Source: a virus (Duplodnaviria; Heunggongvirae; Uroviricota; Caudoviricetes). Taken from it: a stretch of DNA of 47,124 nt. Where the stretch lies: IMG/VR virus record IMGVR_UViG_2939521961_000002; one strand, 5' to 3'. This document shows, piece by piece, positions 2,490 to 39,371 of this stretch; position 1 is the first letter of the stretch; every line of letters begins with the position of its first letter. The notes under the pieces were generated by a model that saw nothing but the letters and a program-made list of their open reading frames with translations, had not been told where the DNA came from and made no database searches. The translations under genes and the position numbers were made by a program.

Positions 2490-2640
2490 ACCGCCTCCCG
2501 TTTATTATTTATCTTCTCAGCCAGCCGCTGTGCTTTCAGTGGATTTCTGATAACAGAAAGGCCGGGAAATACCCAGCCTCGCTTTGTAACGGAGTAGACG
2601 AAAGTGATCGCGCCTACCCGGATATTATCGTGAGGATGCG

Positions 2641-3321
2641 TCATCGCCATTGCTCCCCAAATACAAAACCAATTTCAGCCAGTGCCTCGTCCATTTTTTC
2701 GATGAACTCCGGCACCATCTCGTCAAAACTCGCCATGTACTTTTCATTCCGCTCAATCACGACATAATGCAGGCCTTCACGCTTCATGCGCGGGTCATAG
2801 TTGGCAAAGTACCAGGCATCTTTTCGCGTCACCCACATGCTGTACTGCACCTGGGCCATGTAAGCCGATTTTATTGCCTCGAAACCACCGAGCCGGAATT
2901 TCATGAAATCCCGGGAGGTAAACGGGCATTTCAGTTCAAGGCCGTTGCCGTCACTGCATAAACCATCGGGAGAGCAGGCGGTGCGCATACTTTCGTCGCG
3001 ATAGATGATCGGGGATTCAGTAATATTCACGCCGGAAGTGAATTCAAACAGGGTTCTGGCGTCGTTCTCGTACTGTTTTCCCCAGGCCAGCGCCTTAGCA
3101 TTAACTTCCGGAGCCACACCGGTGCAAACCTCAGCCAGCAGGGTGTGGAAGTAGGACATTTTCATGTCAGGCCACTTCTTTCCTGAGCGGGGCTTTGCTA
3201 TCACGTTGTGAACTTCTGAAGCGGTGATGACGCCGAGCCGTAATTTGTGCCATGCATCATCCCCCTGTTCGACAGCTCTCACGTCGATCCCGGTACGCTG
3301 CAGGATAATGTCCGGTATCAT
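2641..3321 (-). CDS. exo: Lambda exonuclease (Red alpha)
   Basis: 226-aa product matches phage lambda Exo from memory ([40 protein letters not shown]...GFVFGEQWR); overlaps bet stop as in lambda. Confidence 0.95.
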
Positions 3322-3842
3322 GCTGCCACCTTCTGCTCAGTGGCTTTCTGTTTCAGGAATCCAAGAGCTTTCACTGCTTCGGCCTGTGTCAGTTCTGACG
3401 ATGCGCGAATGTCGCGGCGAAATATCTGGGAACAGAGCGGCAATAAGTCGTCATCCCATGTTTTATCCAGGGCGATCAGCAGAGTGTTAATCTCCTGCAT
3501 GGTTTCATCGTTAACCGGAGTGATGTCGCGTTCTGGCTGACGTTCTGCAGTGTATGCAGTATTTTCGACAATGCGCTCGGCTTCATCCTTGTCATAGATA
3601 CCAGCAAATCCGAAGGCCAGACGGGCACACTGAATCATGGCTTTATGCCGTAACATCCGTTTGGGATGCGACTGCCACGGCCCCGTGATTTCTCTGCCTT
3701 CGCGGGTTTTGAATGGTTCGCGGCGGCATTCATCCATCCATTCGGTAACGCAGATCGGATGATTACGGTCCTTGCGGTAAATCCGGCATGAACCGCCCCG
3801 GAAATCCTGGAGACTAAACTCCCTGAGAAAGAGGTAAACAGG

Positions 3843-4169
3843 ATGACTAAAAATACTCGTTTTTCCCCCGAAGTCCGTCAGCGGGCGATTCGTATGGTTC
3901 TGGAAAGTCAGGATGAATATGACTCACAGTGGGCGGCAATTTGTTCCATTGCCCCAAAGATTGGCTGTACGCCGGAGACTCTGCGTGTCTGGGTTCGCCA
4001 GCATGAGCGGGATACCGGGGGCGGTGATGGTGGGCTCACCAGTGCTGAACGTCAGCGTCTGAAAGAGCTGGAACGTGAAAATCGTGAACTGCGCCGCAGT
4101 AACGATATCCTTCGCCAGGCTTCCGCTTATTTTGCGAAGGCGGAGTTCGACCGCCTCTGGAAAAAATGA
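3843..4169 (+). CDS. IS3-family transposase OrfA (HTH)
   Basis: 108 aa [30 protein letters not shown]...; leucine-zipper-like C-terminus; overlaps orfB by 4 nt at an A-rich site typical of -1 frameshifting. Confidence 0.85.
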
Positions 4170-5056
4170 TGCCACTGCTGGATAAGCTGCGTGAGCAGTA
4201 CGGGGTCGGACCGGTATGCAGCGAACTGCATATTGCCCCGTCAACGTATTACCATTGTCAGCAACAGCGACATCATCCGGATAAACGCAGTGCCCGTGCG
4301 CAGCACGATGACTGGCTGAAGAAAGAGATACAGCGCGTATACGATGAAAATCACCAGGTATACGGTGTGCGTAAAGTCTGGCGTCAGTTGTTACGGGAAG
4401 GTATCAGAGTGGCCAGATGCACTGTGGCACGTCTCATGGCAGTTATGGGACTTGCCGGTGTTCTCCGGGGTAAAAAGGTCCGCACTACCGTCAGCCGGAA
4501 AGCCGTTGCCGCATGCGACCGCGTAAACCGTCAGTTCGTGGCAGAACGTCCAGACCAGTTGTGGGTGGCTGATTTTACCTGGGTAAGCACATGGCAGGGC
4601 TTCGTTTATGTGGCGTTCATCATTGATGTGTTCGCCGGATACATCGTGGGATGGCAGGTCTCATCATCCATGGAAACAACATTCGTGCTGGATGCACTGG
4701 AGCAGGCGTTGTGGGCCCGTCGGCCGTCCGGCACAATCCATCACAGTGATAAAGGTTCTCAGTATGTATCGCTGGCCTACACGCAGCGGCTTAAGGAAGC
4801 CGGATTACTGGCATCAACAGGGAGTACTGGCGACTCGTATGACAACGCGATGGCTGAGAGCATCAATGGTCTTTACAAAGCGGAGGTAATACACCGTAAT
4901 AGCTGGAAAAACCGGACAGAAGTGGAACTGGCCACACTAACGTGGGTGGACTGGTATAACAATCGACGATTGCTGGAAAGGCTGGGCCATATTCCTCCGG
5001 CAGAAGCAGAAAAAGCTTATTATGCTTCCATCGGAAATAATGATCTGGCAGCCTGA
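4166..5056 (+). CDS. IS3-family transposase OrfB (DDE integrase core)
   Basis: 296 aa with DDE-type catalytic core (…WVADFT…HSDKGSQY…YDNAMAES…). Confidence 0.85.
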
Positions 5057-5421
5057 GTTCACAGATAAAATACTCTCCAGGAAACCCGGGGCGGTTCAGC
5101 ATGTACAGGATTCATTGTCCTGCTCAAAGTCCATGCCATCAAACTGCTGGTTTTCATTGATGATGCGGGACCAGCCATCAACGCCCACCACCGGAACAAT
5201 GCCGTTCTGCTTATCAGGGAAGGCGTAAATTTCTTTCGTCCACGGATTAAGGCCGTACTGGTTGGCGACGATCAACAATGCGATGAACTGCGCATCGCTG
5301 GCATCACCTTTAAATGCCGTCTGGCGAAGAGTGGTGATCAGTTCCTGTGGGTCGACAGAATCCATGCCGACACGTTCAGCCAGCTTCCCTGCCAGCGTTG
5401 CGAGTGCTGTACTCATCCGTT

Positions 5422-5718
5422 TTATACCTCTGAATCAATATCAACCTGGTGGTGAGCAATGGTTTCAACCATGTACCGGATGTGTTCTGCCATGCGCTCC
5501 TGAAACTCAACATCGTCATCAAACGCACGGGTAATGGCTTTTTTGCTGGCCCCGTGGCGTTGCAAATGATCGATGCATAGCGATTCAAACAGGTGCTGGG
5601 GCAGGCCTTTTTCCATGTCGTCTGCCAGTTCTGCCTCTTTCTCTTCACGGGCGATCTGCTGGTAGTGACGCGCCCAGCTCTGAGCCTCAAGACGATCCTG
5701 AATGTAATAAGCGTTCAT
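5422..5718 (-). CDS. gam: Gam (RecBCD inhibitor), short form
   Basis: 98 aa matches lambda GamS ([21 protein letters not shown]...[10 protein letters not shown]); the upstream in-frame region is diverged from lambda and closed by a stop at 5794..5796. Confidence 0.9.
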
Positions 5719-5793
5719 GGCTGAACTCCTGAAAATGGCTGTGAAAAAATCGCCCGCGGAATGCCAGGCTGATTCGGAAAACAGGAAAGGGGA

Positions 5794-6084
5794 TTAGTGA
5801 TTCAGAGCGTTGCCGCGTCCGTCGAGAAAAACTTCCACGAGCAAGTCACGGGTATAAGTGCGCTCAATGCCGCGATGCAGATAAAGTCGTCCGCGTAAAT
5901 TAGCTGATGCAGTCCAGGTACCATCTTTGCGTTTGACCAGCATTCCTGGCATGACTGCACCGCGATTAACGGTCTGCGTTCCGTAATGTTGATGAACCAT
6001 AAAAACTCCTGCCCGTAAGCTGGGCTGCTGAACATATAAAGACTTCTGCGCGTATTCAGGCGGTGGATGGCCGCCGGTTGTCAT
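5794..6084 (-). CDS. Hypothetical protein, first ORF downstream of putative pL (kil/cIII position)
   Basis: 96-aa ORF in frame with gam but separated by TAA; no family recognised; see finding on the in-frame Arg-rich upstream ORF. Confidence 0.35.
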   Translation of the reverse strand: MTTGGHPPPEYAQKSLYVQQPSLRAGVFMVHQHYGTQTVNRGAVMPGMLVKRKDGTWTASANLRGRLYLHRGIERTYTRDLLVEVFLDGRGNALNH

Positions 6085-6277
6085 AACTAAGCCGCCTCGT
6101 TGAAGCGACTAAGGTATGAAATGTTGAGTTGATTTCAGCTGGTCACACCGACGTTCACGCGTCCGTTTCATCCCTCGCACTCCCCGAAGCCTGCTGAAAT
6201 TCAAGCTGCGGATCTAAGCGGTCATCGCAACGGTGAATCAGGTGATTGCCGTATCGTTGTGTTGTTGCGATGAACTC

Positions 6278-6350
6278 ATTTAAAACTATAGTTGTTTTAT
6301 CGTCAACAACAAAAGTTGTTTTGTTGGTTGTTTTAGATATAACTGGTTGT
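6278..6350 (-). promoter_or_regulatory. Putative pL promoter with OL operator repeats
   Basis: On the minus strand TTGACG (plus 6301..6306), 17-nt spacer, TTAAAT (plus 6278..6283); three GTTGTTTT half-site repeats resembling the AACAACC motifs at OR. Confidence 0.35.
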
Positions 6351-6449
6351 ATTTAAGATGGATTTATTTTGTGACTTGCATCGCATAGCGATAACTGAAG
6401 CGAGGTCGTGGTGGTTTTTTTGAACGGTGTATGATGAGGGGAGGGCAAA

Positions 6450-11759: not shown

Positions 11760-11819
11760 CTGTGCGTTGCCGCAAAATCGGCACACGGGATTGGCGTCCC
11801 GGACATCAAAACGACGCAT

Positions 11820-11840
11820 AACCGCGTTCGCGGTTTTTTT
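11820..11840 (+). terminator. Hairpin plus T7 run in the leader (possible attenuator)
   Basis: AACCGC-GTTC-GCGGTT followed by TTTTTTT, about 55 nt downstream of the putative promoter and upstream of the Bro-N start. Confidence 0.35.
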
Positions 11841-15991: not shown

Positions 15992-17074
15992 TTAGAACTG
16001 GTAAACCATACCTACAGCAACGATATCATCGGTAGCAACGCCAGATGCTTTCGTGAAATCGCTCTTATCAATCAGGTTGATTTTGTAGTCAACAAAAGTG
16101 GACATATTTTTGTTGAAGTAATAGGTTGCACCTACATCAATATATTCAACCAGGTCCTGATCACCCCAAGCACCCAAGTCTTTCCCTTTAGATTGCAGAT
16201 AAGCAACGGACGGACGCAGACCGAAGTCGAACTGATATTGTGCAACTACTTCGAAGTTTTGTGCTTTGTTGGCAATATGGTTTTTACCAAAAACAGTCAT
16301 GTTTTGGGTTTCAGAATAGGTAGTAGCCAGATAGATGTTGTTCGCATCATATTTCAGACCAGCTGCCCATACTTCAGCATTTTGACCAGATGCATTCAGG
16401 CTGTTGTTACCGTAGATAACCTGATTATTAGTGCGATCAGATTTAGCATAGGTTGCACCTACGCCGAAACCTTCATACTCATAAGTAGTGGAGAAACCGA
16501 AACCATCACCATTAGCTTGAGTTACGTCAGTACGGTCATTTTTACCCTGATACTGAGCAGCAAAGTTCAGACCATCAACCAGACCAAAGAAGTCATTGTT
16601 ACGATAAGTTGCAACACCTGTGGTGCGACCAGTCATGAATACATCTGTTTGGGTCCAGGTATCGCCACCGAATTCTGGCAGAACGTCGGTCCATGCACCA
16701 ATATCGTATGCTACACCGTAGTTACGGCCATAATCGATGGAGCCGTAGTCACCGAATTTCAGGCCAGCGAAGGCAAGACGGGTTTTATCTTTGGAGGAAC
16801 CTTGAGATTCAGCGCGGTTGCCTTTGAATTCATATTCCCACTGACCGAAACCAGTCAGTTGATCGTTGATTTGGGTTTCACCTTTGAAGCCAAGACGGGC
16901 ATAAGTAGTATCACCATCATCTGCATCATTAGAGGAGAAGTAGTGCTTAGCATTAACTTTCCCGTACAGATCCAGCTTGTTACTGTCTTTATTATAAATT
17001 TCAGCTGCCTGAGCAGACATCGCCATCAGTACTGATGCAGCTACAGCAGAAATTGCCACTGTTAATTTTTTCAT
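15992..17074 (-). CDS. nmpC: Outer-membrane porin (OmpC/OmpF/NmpC family), intact
   Basis: 360 aa with signal peptide [23 protein letters not shown], aromatic-rich beta-barrel sequence ending ...VAVGMVYQF; convergent to the late operon, as nmpC in DLP12. Confidence 0.88.
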
Positions 17075-18864: not shown

Positions 18865-19158
18865 TTATTGTGAGCAATACACACGCGCTTCCAGCGGAGT
18901 ATAAATGCCTAAAGTAATAAAACCGAGCAATCCATTTACGAATGTTTGCTGGGTTTCTGTTTTAACAACATTTTCTGCGCCGCCACAAATTTTGGCTGCA
19001 TCAACAGTTTTCTCCTGTCCAATTCCCGAAACGAAGAAGTGATGGGTGATGGTTTCCTTTGGTGTTACTGCTGTCGGTTTGTTTCCAACAGTAAACGTCT
19101 GTTGAGCACATCCTGTAATAAGCATTGCCAGAGCGGCAGAAAACAACATTTTTTTCAT
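18865..19158 (-). CDS. bor: Bor lipoprotein (serum-resistance family)
   Basis: 97 aa from internal ATG MKKMLFSAALAMLITGCAQQTFTV... matches lambda Bor; lipobox ITGC. Confidence 0.9.
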   Translation of the reverse strand: MKKMLFSAALAMLITGCAQQTFTVGNKPTAVTPKETITHHFFVSGIGQEKTVDAAKICGGAENVVKTETQQTFVNGLLGFITLGIYTPLEARVYCSQ

Positions 19159-19498
19159 CTTATTATCCTGCATTGTTAAAAACGGCAGAATCCTATGTGA
19201 CAACAATTAAACGATAGTTAAATGGATTGATGAAAATTAAAACTATATAGGTGGATGCTCAGCCTATTGGAGGAGGGGGGCACTCAGAATCCTGTGGAAT
19301 GAAATAAACCGCTCTATCTGTCCATTACCCTTTTAGCTGCGCTGTATCGTCGCCGTATTCCCGCATTAACCATGACCGTAGCCCGACGGGGAATTCCTTC
19401 TGCGTGAGTGTGCGGGAATAATCAAAAACGATGCACACCGGGTTTTACTGTGCTGACTGAACCGCCCCGGGTTCCTGGAGAGTGTTTTATCTGTGAAC

Positions 19499-20389
19499 TC
19501 AGGCTGCCAGATCATCGTTTCCGATGGAAGCATAATAAGCTTTTTCTGCTTCTGCCGGAGGAGTATGGCCCAGCCTTCCCAGCAATCGTCGATTGTTATA
19601 CCAGTCCACCCACGTTAGTGTGGCCAGTTCCACTTCTGCACGGTTTTTCCAGCTCTTACGGTGTATTACCTCCGCTTTGTAAAGACCATTGATGCTCTCA
19701 GCCATCGCGTTGTCATACGAGTCGCCTGTACTCCCTGTTGATGCCAGTAATCCGGCTTCTTTTAGTCGCTCCGTATAGGCCAGTGACACATACTGAGAGC
19801 CTTTATCGCTGTAATGGATGGTGCCAGACGGACGACGGGCCCACAACGCCTGCTCCAGCGCATCCAGCACGAATGTCGTTTCCATAGACGATGAGACCCG
19901 CCCCCCCACGATGTATCCGGCAAACACATCAATGATAAACGCCACATAGACGAAGCCCTGCCATGTGCTGACGTAAGTAAAATCAGCCACCCACAGCTGG
20001 TCAGGACGTTCTGCCACGAACTGACGGTTTACGCGGTCACCTGTGGCAACGGTTTTCCGGCTGACGGTAGTGCGGACCTTTTTACCCCGGAGAACACCGG
20101 CAAGTCCCATAACCGCCATGAGGCGCGCCACTGTACATCTGGCCACCCTGATTCCTTCCCGTAACAACTGACGCCAGACTTTACGCACACCGTACACCTG
20201 ATGATTTTCATCGTATACGCGCTGTATCTCTCTCTTCAGCCAGTCATCGTGCTGCGCACGGGCACTGCGTTTATCCGGATGATGTCGCTGTTGCTGACAA
20301 TGGTAATACGTTGACGGGGCAATATGCAGTTCGCTGCATACCGGTCCGACCCCGTACTGCTCACGCAGCTTATCCAGCAGTGGCATCAT
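19499..20389 (-). CDS. IS3-family transposase OrfB, copy 2
   Basis: 296 aa; near-identical to 4166..5056 product with several substitutions. Confidence 0.85.
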
Positions 20390-20712
20390 TTTTTCCAGAG
20401 GCGGTCGAACTCCGCCTTCGCAAAATAAGCGGAAGCCTGGCGAAGGATATCGTTACTGCGGCGCAGTTCACGATTTTCACGTTCCAGCTCTTTCAGACGC
20501 TGACGTTCAGCGCTGGTGAGCCCACCATCACCGCCCCCGGTATCCCGCTCATGCTGGCGAACCCAGACACGCAGGGTCTCCGGCGTACAGCCAATCTTTG
20601 GGGCAATGGAACAAATTGCCGCCCACTGTGAGTCATATTCATCCTGACTTTCCAGAACCATACGAATCGCCCGCTGACGGACTTCGGGGGAAAAACGAGT
20701 ATTTTTAGTCAT
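20386..20712 (-). CDS. IS3-family transposase OrfA, copy 2
   Basis: 108 aa identical in length to 3843..4169 product. Confidence 0.85.
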
Positions 20713-20829
20713 CCTGTTTACCTCTTTCTCAGGGAGTTTAGTCTCCAGGATTTCCGGGGCGGTTCAGACAGACGCAGGGTTACCCTCATAGTCGCTTTTC
20801 CGGTGCGATGGTGGAAGAAACCGGGATGT

Positions 20830-25659: not shown

Positions 25660-26131
25660 TCTCCCGCATATTGCCAGCATGGCTTTTAATGAGCCGCTGA
25701 TGCTTGAACCCGCCTATGCGCGGGTTTTCTTTTGTGCGCTTGCAGGCCAGCTTGGGATCAGCCGCCTGACGGATGCGGTGTCCGGCGACAGCCTGACTGC
25801 CCAGGAGGCACTCGCGACGCTGGCATTATCCGGTGATGATGACGGACCACGACAGGCCCGCAGTTATCAGGTCATGAACGGCATCGCCGTGCTGCCGGTG
25901 TCCGGCACGCTGGTCAGCCGGACGCGGGCGCTGCAGCCGTACTCGGGGATGACCGGTTACAACGGCATTATCGCCCGTCTGCAACAGGCTGCCAGCGATC
26001 CGATGGTGGACGGCATTCTGCTCGATATGGACACGCCCGGCGGGATGGTGGCGGGGGCATTTGACTGCGCTGACATCATCGCCCGTGTGCGTGACATAAA
26101 AGTAAGCGACTCGTCAGAACCGTATTGATAT

Positions 26132-27703
26132 TTACTGAGAGCTCAGATCAACTTTCCAGGGCAACAGATCGCGTACCCGGTTTGCCGGCCAGTCCTGGAT
26201 ATGTTCAATGACGTAACGCAGCCACTTTTCTGGCTCCACATTGTTCAGACGGCATGTGCCGATCAGCGAGTACAACACCGCCGCATGTTCACCACCGCTG
26301 TCGGAACCCGCGAACATCCAGTTTTTCCGGCCTACGGCCACTCCCCGTAAGGCGTTCTCTGCGATGTTGTTGTCGATTTCCACCCAGCCATTACTGCAGT
26401 ACACGTTCAGTGCATCCCACTGTTTCAGCAGGTATGCGAACGCTTTTGCCGTATCTGAGTGACGCGACAGTGTTTTCATCTGTTGCTGTATCCAGTCATA
26501 CAGTGACTGCATCAGTGGCGCGGCTCTGGCTTTTCTTGCCGCCAGACGCTGTTCTGCTGAACAGCCCCGGACCTCTGCCTCGATGGCATACAGTTCACCG
26601 ATACGCTGCAGGGCTTCCGTGGTGATGTAGGTGGGCGCTCTTGCATGCACATCGTGGATTTTTCTCCGGGCATGAGCCATACACGCGGCTTCCGTTATTC
26701 TGCCGGATTCGTATAACGCCCGGTAACCACCGTAAGCATCGGCCTGAAGCACACCGCTGTAACCGGCCAGGTGATTTTGTGGATGGATACCTTTCCGGTC
26801 CGGACTGTACGCGAACCAGACCGCCGGGGGCATCTGTGAACCGGCGTTACGGTCATCACGGACGTAGACCCACAGCCGGGCTGTCCGGGTTTTACCGCTG
26901 CCCGGCTCCTGGACCGGGACGGGGATATCATCAGCATGGACTTTACCGGGCATCAGCACATACTGGCGCAGGACGTCATACAGCGGCTCCAGCAGTTCAG
27001 CAACAGCACCTGTCCAGCGCCCCAGTGTGGCACGGCTCAGCTCCACTCCCTGACGACGGTATATTTCTGACTGGCGGTATAACGGCAGATGGTCTGCATA
27101 TTTCCCGGTGACAACATGGGCCAGAAGCCCCGCTCCGGCATAACTGCGTGCAATGGGTTTTGAAGGTACTGGTGCCTGCACGATATGGTCGCACCGGCAA
27201 CAGGCCTGTTTCGGACGTTGTGTTTCGATAACCTTAAAGGCGCTGCTGATAAGCTCCAGTTGCTCTGACACATCACATCCCAGAGAACTGAGTTCACCAC
27301 CACAGGCAGGACAGCATTCCTCTTCCGGCCGGATAACCCGGGTTTCACGGGGAAGTGAGGCCGGTAACGGTTTACGGGCTGAAGACTGGCGCAGGGCGGA
27401 TGGCAGTACCGGGTCATATTGCTCACCCAGCGTTTCCGCCATTTCTTCCTGAAGTGCGCTGATTCGCTCCTGTGCTTCCTGTATCTGCCGTTCGGTTTTT
27501 GCACGAAGTTTTTCTGAGCTTTTACCGAACTGCATACGTTGCAGTTTCGCAACCAGCGCCTTCAGCCGGTTGATTTCGGAAGCATAAGCCGCCACCCGCT
27601 GTGAGAGCAGGCGGTTGTATTCAGCCATCTGGCGGATGGTGTCCTGTTGCGTCTGCAACAGTGCCCGCAGGCGGGCGTTCTCATGAGCAAGTGAGGTGTC
27701 CAT
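26132..27703 (-). CDS. IS66-family transposase (TnpC/ORF3)
   Basis: 523 aa with N-terminal leucine zipper-like region, CxxC...CxxC zinc-finger motifs and DDE-type core. Confidence 0.85.
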
Positions 27704-27722
27704 ATCCTCACTTTACAACGGG

Positions 27723-28070
27723 TTATATGCGGATTCCAGCGCGTTCCGTTCGTTTCGGGTGCTTCCAGTTGATACCTTCAAGAAGCATGGATAACTGAGC
27801 CGGAGTAAGGTGCACCTTGCCGTCACGGGTGACTGGCCAGACGAAGCGGCCCCGCTCCAGGCGTTTGGTGAAGAGGCACAGTCCGTCACTGTCAGCCCAC
27901 AACACTTTTATCTGGTCACCCCGGCGTCCGCGGAAGATGAACAGGTGTCCGGAGAACGGGTCATCCTTCAGGACGTTCTGAACTTTTGATGCCAGGCCGT
28001 TAAAGCCATTTCGCATATCGGTGATACCTGCAACCAGCCAGATACGCGAACCTGCAGGGAGAGATATCAT
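27723..28070 (-). CDS. IS66-family accessory protein TnpB (ORF2)
   Basis: 115 aa MISLPAGSRIWLVAGITDMRNGFNGLA... typical IS66 Orf2. Confidence 0.8.
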   Translation of the reverse strand: MISLPAGSRIWLVAGITDMRNGFNGLASKVQNVLKDDPFSGHLFIFRGRRGDQIKVLWADSDGLCLFTKRLERGRFVWPVTRDGKVHLTPAQLSMLLEGINWKHPKRTERAGIRI

Positions 28071-28747
28071 CAGTGGCTGCTCCCTTTTATTTCGCGGATA
28101 AGTGTCTGTAATAACGCCGGCGTCAGTTTACCTTTAAGCCTGAGAGTTCCGGCCGGCAGAACCAGCTCACAACACAGACTGTCGGACGGTGTATTTATCT
28201 GCTCTGGTTCCTGTGCGGGGGCCGGGATTTTATTATCCGGCTCCGGCGTTAACGTCACGGGAAGCAGTGCCGGCATATTTTTTCCGGAAGGCAGCAGGCC
28301 ACCTTTCCGGTATTGATGGCGCCAGTTGAAGAGCAGGTTATCGTTGATTCCGTTTTCCCGGGCGATCTGCGCCACACAGGCTCCGGGCTGCAGTGACTGC
28401 TCCACTAAGGCGATTTTAAACTCATAAGGGAAGTTGGGCCGCCGGGGACGTTTTTTTACCACGGGGGCTTCGGATATAACGGTGCTTTCAGGACGTACGA
28501 CTGGTACCGTGGAAAATTGTCCGTAAAGGCAGGCATCAAGTTCCTGCTCCGACATGCCTGCGGGCAAAGGCCACGAAAGGCCAGCTCTCCGAAAGCGCAC
28601 GAACATACTACAAACTGTTGATTTTGGTACACCCAGGCGACGCCCGGCCACAACCCGGGGTAAATGTTCTTCAAAGTGAAGACGTAAAGCTTCAGTGATC
28701 CAGGTCCGGTGTTTCATACGATAGTGTCCATTAAAAATGATGGACAT
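28070..28747 (-). CDS. IS66-family accessory protein TnpA (ORF1), start uncertain
   Basis: Up to 225 aa with HTH-like N-terminal region; overlaps tnpB start; true start may be internal. Confidence 0.6.
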   Translation of the reverse strand: MSIIFNGHYRMKHRTWITEALRLHFEEHLPRVVAGRRLGVPKSTVCSMFVRFRRAGLSWPLPAGMSEQELDACLYGQFSTVPVVRPESTVISEAPVVKKRPRRPNFPYEFKIALVEQSLQPGACVAQIARENGINDNLLFNWRHQYRKGGLLPSGKNMPALLPVTLTPEPDNKIPAPAQEPEQINTPSDSLCCELVLPAGTLRLKGKLTPALLQTLIREIKGSSH

Positions 28748-29270
28748 TATTTTTGTAGAGCCGGAGGAAACAGACCAGACGGTTTAAATGAGCCGGTTAC
28801 ACATAAAACCGGTATGGGCGCTTGCCAACGACATGAACTGCAGTGCAGGTCAGTTGCTTGCCAGTGCCGCCTCCCGGCGTCTGGTCACGCAGACCGCCCG
28901 GACAGGCTCCATCGGCGTCATGATGGCTCACAGTAATTACGGTGCTGCGCTGGAGAAACAGGGTGTGGAAATCACGCTGATTTACAGCGGCAGCCATAAG
29001 GTGGATGGCAACCCCTACAGCCATCTTCCGGATGACGTCCGGGAGACACTGCAGTACCGGATGGACGCAACCCGCCAGATGTTTGCGCAGAAGGTGTCGG
29101 CATATACCGGCCTGTCCGTGCAGGCTGTGCTGGATACCGAGGCTGCAGTGTACAGCGGTCAGGAGGCCATTGATGCCGGACTGGCTGATGAACTTGTTAA
29201 CAGCACCGATGCGATCACCGTCATGCGTGATGCACTGGATGCACGTAAATCCCGTCTCTCAGGAGGGCGA

Positions 29271-38058: not shown

Positions 38059-38709
38059 ATGACACAGACAGAATCAGCGATTCTGGCGCACGCCCGGCGA
38101 TGTGCGCCAGCGGAGTCGTGCGGCTTCGTGGTAAGCACGCCGGAGGGGGAAAGATATTTCCCCTGCGTGAATATCTCCGGTGAGCCGGAGGCGTATTTCC
38201 GTATGTCGCCGGAAGACTGGCTGCAGGCAGAAATGCAGGGGGAGATTGTGGCGCTGGTCCACAGCCACCCCGGTGGTCTGCCCTGGCTGAGTGAGGCCGA
38301 CCGGCGGCTGCAGGTGCAGAGTGATTTGCCGTGGTGGCTGGTCTGCCGGGGTGAGATTCATAAGTTCCGCTGTGTGCCGCATCTCACCGGGCGGCGCTTT
38401 GAGCACGGTGTGACGGACTGTTACACACTGTTCCGGGATGCTTATCATCTGGCGGAGATTGAGATGCCGGATTTTGTGCGTGAGGATGACTGGTGGCGTA
38501 ACGGTCAGAATCTCTATCTGGATAATCTGGAGGCCACAGGGCTGTATCAGGTGCCGTTGTCAGCGGCGCAGCCGGGCGATGTGCTGCTGTGCTGTTTTGG
38601 TTCATCGGTGCCGAATCACGCCGCTATTTACTGTGGTGACGGCGAGCTGCTGCACCATATTCCTGAACAACTGAGTAAACGGGAGAGGTATACCGACAAA
38701 TGGCAGTGA
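38059..38709 (+). CDS. K: Tail tip assembly protein K (JAB/MPN and NlpC/P60-like)
   Basis: 216 aa MTQTESAILAHARRCAPAESCGFVVSTPEGERYF... matches lambda gpK. Confidence 0.9.
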   Translation: MTQTESAILAHARRCAPAESCGFVVSTPEGERYFPCVNISGEPEAYFRMSPEDWLQAEMQGEIVALVHSHPGGLPWLSEADRRLQVQSDLPWWLVCRGEIHKFRCVPHLTGRRFEHGVTDCYTLFRDAYHLAEIEMPDFVREDDWWRNGQNLYLDNLEATGLYQVPLSAAQPGDVLLCCFGSSVPNHAAIYCGDGELLHHIPEQLSKRERYTDKWQ

Positions 38710-39371
38710 CGCACACACTCCCTCTGGCGTCACCGGGAATGGCACGCATCTGCCTTTACGGGGATTTGCAACGATTTGGCCGCCGCATCGACCTTCGTGT
38801 GAAAACGGGGGCTGAAGCCATCCGCGCACTGGCCACACAGCTCCCGGCGTTTCGTCAGAAACTGAGCGACGGCTGGTATCAGGTACGGATTGCCGGGCGG
38901 GACGTCAGCGCGTCCGGGTTAACGGCGCAGTTACATGAGACTCTGCCTGATGGCGCTGTGATTCATATTGTTCCCAGAGTCGCCGGGGCCAAGTCAGGTG
39001 GCGTATTCCAGATTGTCCTGGGGGCTGCAGCCATTGCCGGATCATTCTTTACCGCCGGAGCCACCCTTGCAGCATGGGGGGCAGCCATTGGGGCCGGTGG
39101 TATGACCGGCATCCTGTTTTCTCTCGGTGCCAGTATGGTGCTCGGTGGTGTGGCGCAGATGCTGGCACCGAAAGCCAGAACTCCCCGTACACAGACAACG
39201 GATAACGGTAAGCAGAACACCTATTTCTCCTCACTGGATAACATGGTTGCCCAGGGCAATGTTCTGCCTGTTCTGTACGGGGAAATGCGCGTGGGGTCTC
39301 GCGTGGTTTCTCAGGAGATCAGCACGGCAGACGAAGGGGACGGTGGTCAGGTTGTGGTGATTGGTCGCTGA
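38700..39371 (+). CDS. I: Tail tip assembly protein I
   Basis: 223 aa matching lambda gpI. Confidence 0.9.
   Translation: MAVTHTLPLASPGMARICLYGDLQRFGRRIDLRVKTGAEAIRALATQLPAFRQKLSDGWYQVRIAGRDVSASGLTAQLHETLPDGAVIHIVPRVAGAKSGGVFQIVLGAAAIAGSFFTAGATLAAWGAAIGAGGMTGILFSLGASMVLGGVAQMLAPKARTPRTQTTDNGKQNTYFSSLDNMVAQGNVLPVLYGEMRVGSRVVSQEISTADEGDGGQVVVIGR

Follow-up and report, generated by a model that had tools for sequence, protein, structure and literature searches.

IMG/VR record IMGVR_UViG_2939521961_000002 is a viral DNA sequence of 47,124 nt (Duplodnaviria; Heunggongvirae; Uroviricota; Caudoviricetes), referred to here as the window, which carries the Red recombination genes gam, bet, and exo of a lambda-like prophage. 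In this work, we examined an insertion sequence (IS) of the IS629 family that interrupts bet. An original prediction made from the DNA letters alone had proposed an IS629-like element inserted precisely between codons 106 and 107 of bet with a 3-bp GCA duplication, exo and gam remaining intact, and had described the outcome as a selectively broken Red system. The features at this locus are listed below by their coordinates in the window, with open reading frame abbreviated as ORF.

2641..3321, minus strand: exo, 226 aa, intact ORF whose start overlaps the bet stop (ATGA 3318-3321); YqaJ; full-length match to lambda exonuclease 1AVQ/6M9K, E 3e-154
3318..3788, minus strand: bet 3′ fragment, comprising the duplicated Cys codon and codons 107-261, with the longest residual ORF starting from Met123 (3737); RecT profile positions 145-195
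3786..3788, no strand: left copy of the target-site duplication GCA, which on the minus strand is TGC, codon Cys106 of bet; read from the sequence, with a single occurrence in strain 11368
3789..5098, plus strand: complete IS629-family (IS3 family) insertion sequence, copy A, 1310 bp; boundaries and length from the sequence
3789..3814, plus strand: left terminal inverted repeat, beginning 5′-TG, 13 nt perfect and ~26 nt imperfect; end-versus-end comparison
3843..4169, plus strand: orfA, 108 aa, HTH_Tnp_1 DNA-binding protein; ORF, PF01527, E 2.4e-12
4124..4240, plus strand: predicted ALIL pseudoknot, with an A6 slippery run at the stop of orfA (GGAAAAAATGA), a stimulator of -1 frameshifting; Rfam RF01497, full-length model
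4166..5056, plus strand: orfB, 296 aa, read in frame -1 with respect to orfA, with a DDE integrase-core (rve) domain; PF00665, E 2.4e-26, also HTH_21 and rve_3
5073..5098, plus strand: right terminal inverted repeat, ending CA-3′; end-versus-end comparison
5096..5416, minus strand: bet 5′ fragment, codons 1-106, closed by a TGA of the IS terminus; ORF, RecT profile positions 5-82 only
5099..5101, no strand: right copy of the target-site duplication GCA; read from the sequence
5422..5718, minus strand: gam, intact ORF of 98 aa (GamS-length), situated upstream of the insertion; PF06064 1-98/98, full-length match to PDB 5MBV/2UUZ

The predicted boundaries and features of the 1310-bp IS3-family element at 3789-5098, including its paired termini, hold to the base. 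The left end of copy A reads TGAACCGCCCCGG and the right end CCGGGGCGGTTCA; the two pair at 13 of 13 positions, with imperfect pairing extending to ~26 nt. Copy A thus has the length of ~1.3 kb, the imperfect inverted repeats with TG...CA ends, and a duplication within the 3-4 bp range by which IS629 is recognized. The GCA duplication was found at both 3786-3788 and 5099-5101 and occurs only once at the empty site of strain 11368, and duplications of 4-9 nt tried at the flanks of copy A gave no match. Two random 3-bp flanks agree with a chance of 1/64. The decisive point is the colinearity of the excised window with an uninterrupted prophage.

That uninterrupted prophage is found in E. coli O26:H11 strain 11368. 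After removal of the IS and one GCA, the window is colinear with NC_013361.1 612093-657903 over 45,811 bp with four single-nucleotide polymorphisms (SNPs), none of which is located in exo, bet, or gam. The region in strain 11368 is a lambda-like prophage beside tRNA-Arg (argU), fimZ, and intD, and its bet is intact and encodes 261 aa. The comparison with strains having an uninterrupted bet, which had been proposed as a check, thus provides the empty site, and it agrees with the reading of the junctions in placing an IS629-type element between codons 106 and 107. Many O26-type genomes share this uninterrupted bet allele at 100% identity, and at least 12 genomes are 100% identical over the 24.9 kb that lie right of the insertion.

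A sister strain, 2009C_3996 (NZ_CP074890.1), has the same argU prophage with an identical IS sub-type inserted in a DUF4222 gene (4001-5310 of the locus examined; TGG duplication) and an intact bet, which shows that the mobility of this IS sub-type in the prophage lineage is ongoing. Such IS-position polymorphism between near-identical prophages may be of use for strain typing. Some apparent matches did not hold. The full coverage of a 3.7-kb query in 2009C_3996 and 2015C-4944 came from joined, non-colinear pieces, with the IS in the DUF4222 gene and bet intact. The phages phi330 and phi345, colinear at first sight, have an intact bet and carry the IS in the gam-kil region.

For the distribution of the junctions, probes of 120 nt across each junction were compared with 5,426 complete RefSeq E. 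coli genomes at a coverage cut-off of 80%. Single-piece matches to either junction were found in 0 of these genomes. The hits with at least 80% coverage all consisted of two joined pieces, derived from IS copies at nearby, differing sites. Exact junction patterns also gave 0 hits in IMG/VR, JGI metagenomes, and GTDB representative genomes. A look-up of exact matches to the 106-aa Bet stub led to GenBank CP027572.1 (GCA_003018515.1, a closed 5.86-Mb chromosome) and to a Logan contig described below. CP027572.1, which is probably the source strain, contains both junctions and the IS, with 11,416 of 11,416 nt identical to the window. The insertion in bet is recent and strain-specific. The 139-aa C-terminal Bet ORF occurs exactly in 1,202 blocks of the public collection, a count that is uninformative for the junction. 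Those blocks are mostly cryptic prophages whose bet was shortened by a deletion or by an IS of another kind (IS21-, IS1-, and IS4-like), which makes bet remnants very common.

At the protein level, the N-terminal frame of bet runs from 5416 to Cys106 (TGC, 5101-5099) and then enters a TGA contributed by the IS terminus (5098-5096). Past the second TGC (3788-3786), the frame resumes as RIYRKDRNHPICV... and continues to its natural stop at 3318. Excision in silico of the IS and one GCA restores a single ORF of 261 aa, as expected if the two flanking halves had formed one continuous frame. Over residues 1-177, the reconstructed Bet shows no difference from lambda Red-beta (PDB 7UJL, annealing domain). 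In structure and profile searches, its residues 1-178 match 7UJL (E 1.8e-122), its residues 182-261 match 8TFU/6M9K (C-terminal domain structures), and Pfam RecT covers residues 24-183 (E 2.7e-33). Over its full length, it presumably differs from lambda Bet by one residue. As it stands, the annealing-domain frame is interrupted after residue 106, and the remaining codons lie 1313 nt away, such that bet is a pseudogene in the window. Because the break falls inside the annealing domain (RecT positions 5-82 on one side and 145-195 on the other), it is a safe inference that Bet, the single-strand annealing protein of the prophage Red system, is inactivated.

The operon has the order gam-bet-exo with all genes on the minus strand (bet 3318-5416, split). 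As predicted, exo and gam are intact, with full-length matches to the structures of lambda Exo and Gam and no SNP relative to strain 11368. Expression of exo, which lies downstream in the same leftward operon, is probably lowered by the insertion: translation of bet stops 1.8 kb upstream of it, with the 1.3-kb IS lying antisense in between. A scan of 2600-6400 for consensus promoters and terminators gave counts within the shuffled expectation, with no signal for polarity or outward promoters. The locus resembles the lambda Red operon in its gene order and gene overlap, and in having Bet, Exo, and Gam that match the lambda proteins. It differs from the lambda operon in that bet is split at 106/107 and that gam is present only as the 98-aa short form.

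The description of a selectively broken Red system over-reads these data. In strain 11368 and its relatives, this prophage already has its S49 head-protease gene split by ISCro1 (IS66-family) and its gpK homologue interrupted by an internal stop, and it holds a second IS629 copy; moreover, exo lies downstream of the insertion and is probably reduced as well. These earlier lesions are located in the window as follows.

19458-20766, minus strand: second complete IS629-family copy (copy B), 1309 bp, GAC duplication, orfA/orfB intact, ALIL 20315-20431; conserved in strain 11368
~26100-28800, minus strand: ISCro1 (tnpA, tnpB, and tnpC; tnpC ORF 26132-27703), splitting the S49 head-protease (gpC-like) gene; shared with strain 11368
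38059-38802, plus strand: gpK-like tail gene of the C40 peptidase type, carrying an internal stop and marked as a pseudogene in the identical sequence of strain 11368; annotation

Since strain 11368 has the ISCro1 insertion too, the prophage had already lost the ability to form heads. The gpK-like region forms two overlapping ORFs in the window (38059-38709 and 38700-39371). Copy B is situated between the iss/bor and ylcI homologues and differs from copy A at 55 nt and from the O157-type IS629 at only 15 nt; this prophage thus holds two IS629 sub-types in inverted orientation relative to each other. The O26 genomes also contain a second bet-like place. The insertion in bet is a further decay step of a defective prophage and no evidence of a targeted loss of Red.

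The transposase genes of copy A are complete. The computed frame offset indicates that a -1 slip would fuse them into an OrfAB protein of 404 aa. The A6 run stands directly before the orfA stop (TGG AAA AAA TGA), and the ALIL pseudoknot (RF01497) reaches 121.5 bits, well above its gathering score of 50. RefSeq labels an identical IS copy in 2009C_3996 as "IS3 family transposase, programmed frameshift". From these signals, orfA and orfB are expected to be joined by programmed -1 frameshifting. Copy A may also be competent for transposition, as indirectly supported by its intact ORFs and ends and by the presence of identical copies at differing sites in near-identical prophages (bet and the DUF4222 gene).

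Regarding the identity of copy A, the genomes of O26:H11 strains carry 9-15 copies each that match it at 100% identity. Among the ~7,000 records that match it, only 134 reach at least 99% identity, and the majority have 95-99%. Compared with the O157 copies annotated as IS629 (AP012531.1) or "IS1203 family" (NZ_CP066753.1), copy A differs at 52 of 1310 nt (96.0% nucleotide identity), with 100% identity in OrfA and 96.3% in OrfB. The RefSeq label for the copy A type is "IS3 family transposase" only, and that for the O157 copies is "IS1203 family". By the ISfinder convention, a name is shared above 90% nucleotide or 95% amino acid identity to the reference, and copy A lies above this threshold in comparison with the two O157 proxies (AP012531.1 and NZ_CP066753.1) rather than with the ISfinder/X51586 reference. 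The sub-types of IS629 differ by 4-5%, and include an IS1203-like, a Shigella-like, and an O26:H11-like form (Rump et al. 2011, PMC3271280). By these identities, copy A is an IS629 isoform of the O26:H11 sub-type, and probably corresponds to sub-type III of Rump et al. 2011. The name IS629 in the original prediction is therefore sound at the level of family and isoform, with the qualification that the element belongs to the O26:H11 sub-type and stands 52/1310 nt away from the O157 IS629/IS1203 copies.

Compared with IS629, IS1203, IS1203v, and IS3411 of Shigella and enterohemorrhagic E. coli (EHEC), copy A shares the length of 1310 bp, the TG...CA repeats, the 3-bp duplication, the orfA/orfB -1 frameshift, and the ALIL element. 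It also shares the leaning toward prophage targets; IS629 generates target duplications of 3-4 bp, and 62% of its copies are located inside prophages (PMC3271280). Unlike the O157/IS1203-type copies, from which it differs by 4% (52/1310 nt), it is identical to typical O26:H11 copies.

Taken together, it is very probable that an IS629-family element of the O26:H11 sub-type transposed from an identical copy elsewhere in the genome into bet of the argU lambda-like prophage in an O26:H11-type E. coli of the Shiga-toxin lineage. In the IS3 family, OrfAB drives copy-out/paste-in transposition through a circular intermediate and the donor copy is kept (bioRxiv 10.1101/2023.06.07.543989); the donor retention fits the many identical IS copies per O26:H11 genome. 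By this route, OrfAB transposase would be produced by a -1 frameshift at the A6 run, stimulated by ALIL, and would form a circular IS copy from an identical donor elsewhere in the genome. The circle would then integrate into bet through staggered 3-bp cuts, which would generate the GCA duplication. The TGA of the IS terminus ends Bet at residue 106, inside the N-terminal annealing domain, and Bet would be inactivated; gam, being upstream, is unaffected, and the downstream exo, an intact ORF, is probably under-expressed.

In a host bearing the IS-excision enhancer IEE, precise excision could in principle reverse the insertion. IEE strongly enhances the excision of IS629 and is able to restore interrupted genes such as lacZ::IS600, and SpLE1-like elements bear iee in O26:H11 and other major E. 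coli that produce Shiga toxin (STEC) (PMC9397093, PMC9943667). By analogy, a reversion of bet::IS629 is plausible. Other IS knockouts in EHEC (stx2::IS1203v, gne::IS629, iee::IS1203, and lacZ::IS600 with IEE-mediated reversion) are similar in that an IS3-family element inactivated a single gene, in a lineage of STEC with many copies and usually IEE, and that reversal by precise excision may be possible. In contrast to those cases, the target here is a recombination gene of a defective prophage.

Two further insertions of IS629 in bet were identified outside the window. In Logan contig SRR24422368 (6001-6347), the junction ...ACATGC|TGAACCGCCCCGGGTTTCCTGGAGAGTGT shares its base and orientation with the one in the window. 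Its bet nt 1-318 have three SNPs, the nearest being 6 nt from the junction, its IS end is of the O157 type, and its prophage immunity region is different. Given these differences in allele, IS end, and immunity region, the insertion in SRR24422368 must be an independent event; the identity of the flanks in the window to the O26 reference indicates that no foreign bet allele was imported. The other eight loci from the Bet-stub look-up are contigs that end at bet nt 318-319, two of which continue with the intact-bet base and are not countable as insertions. As this look-up only detects breaks at the bet nt 318 position, it provides no enrichment statistic. The third insertion was found in O157:H7 strains ECP19-598 (NZ_CP066753.1, 1357-2666 of the locus examined) and G5295. 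It agrees with the insertion in the window in IS family, gene, orientation relative to bet, and 3-bp length of the duplication, and differs in its site (~codon 151), duplicated bases (ACA), and O157-type IS, such that it represents an independent event. The number of independent bet::IS629 events is now at least three. The gam-kil-cIII-N region of lambdoid phages and prophages is also a common location of IS629 copies.

Several points count against a simple transposition into bet as described above. The junctions depend on one finished assembly. The loss of Bet activity, the polarity on exo, and the activity of the IS were deduced from sequence, and the iee status of the source strain is not visible from the window. 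The name of the element relies on its 96% identity to IS629/IS1203 annotations made by others and on the sub-type scheme in the literature. As IS629 is multicopy and repeats are the usual cause of misassembly, repeats may have been mis-joined such that the IS was misplaced in an intact bet. However, a mis-join would not yield a perfect 3-bp target duplication around a complete 1310-bp element, and the flanks rejoin exactly to the sequence of the 11368 reference. The closed 5.86-Mb chromosome CP027572.1 has the junctions, and the same type of junction is independently present in SRR24422368. An assembly artefact is accordingly very improbable. The presence of two related, inverted IS629 copies (3789-5098 on the plus strand and 19458-20766 on the minus strand) 14 kb apart in one prophage would also be compatible with an inversion or deletion by recombination between them, rather than a simple insertion. 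Yet, each copy keeps its own matched duplication (GCA/GCA and GAC/GAC), the intervening 14 kb are colinear and in the same orientation as in strain 11368, and the two copies differ at 55 positions. The matched duplications and the reference colinearity exclude such an IS-IS event, and its probability is next to nil.

The remaining alternative concerns the reason for the insertion at this site, namely that bet nt 318 is a preferred target of IS629, or that the loss of Red or its IEE-reversible switching is advantageous. The independent insertion at the same base and orientation in the unrelated prophage of SRR24422368, the bet::IS629 at ~codon 151 in O157:H7 ECP19-598/G5295, and the IEE-mediated reversible IS knockouts documented for lacZ (PMC9397093) are consistent with this explanation. 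However, the same-site events number only two, and the junction was found in 0 of the 5,426 complete genomes and in none of the viral, metagenome, and GTDB-representative scans. The resemblance of the target to the IS ends, examined as a sign of IS911-style targeting, is marginal: 15 of 26 positions match beside the site, a score reached by ~0.05% of positions with ~300 positions tried per site. It is also inconsistent over five sites, among which no shared target pattern was found. Furthermore, the prophage was defective beforehand, and the second bet copy in O26 genomes makes a fitness effect doubtful. A favoured or selected insertion is thus unlikely. We give a slightly better, though still small, chance to the narrower conjecture that bet nt 318 is a true hot spot for two IS629 sub-types in two lambdoid prophages, which in IEE-positive STEC might serve as a reversible off-switch of Red. 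A genuine site preference of IS629 at bet is possible, with weak support from these sites.

The insertion in bet is ordinary and strain-specific; both the element and its target gene were known before, and the prophage is defective. Position polymorphisms of IS629 are already in use to discriminate EHEC strains. The insertion in bet marks one lineage, probably the CP027572.1 strain, among otherwise near-identical O26:H11 prophages, and has little weight beyond typing. It also illustrates the ongoing IS-driven decay of a cryptic lambdoid prophage. Such genomes have at least two copies of bet, and the removal of one could slightly lower prophage-prophage recombination. The second independent insertion at the identical nucleotide is only a mildly interesting lead that hints at a target preference.

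Other features of the window, located outside the Red operon, are listed below.

11768-11840, plus strand: isrK Hfq-binding small RNA; Rfam, gathering-level, 64 bits
11865-11952, plus strand: C4 antisense RNA; Rfam, gathering-level, 82.5 bits
12912-13708, plus strand: HEPN-domain protein with a small partner ORF; annotation of the identical sequence in strain 11368
15992-17074, minus strand: phage-borne OmpC/NmpC-like porin; annotation of the identical sequence in strain 11368
~18865-19158, minus strand: Iss/Bor serum-survival lipoprotein; annotation of the identical sequence in strain 11368
46883-47081, plus strand: IS009, full-length, within the tail-fibre assembly gene at the window end; Rfam, 227.8 bits

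The isrK and C4 hits are located just upstream of a gene with a P22AR C-terminal domain (antirepressor-like), an arrangement of the P1/P7-style c4-ant type of immunity module in a lambdoid prophage.

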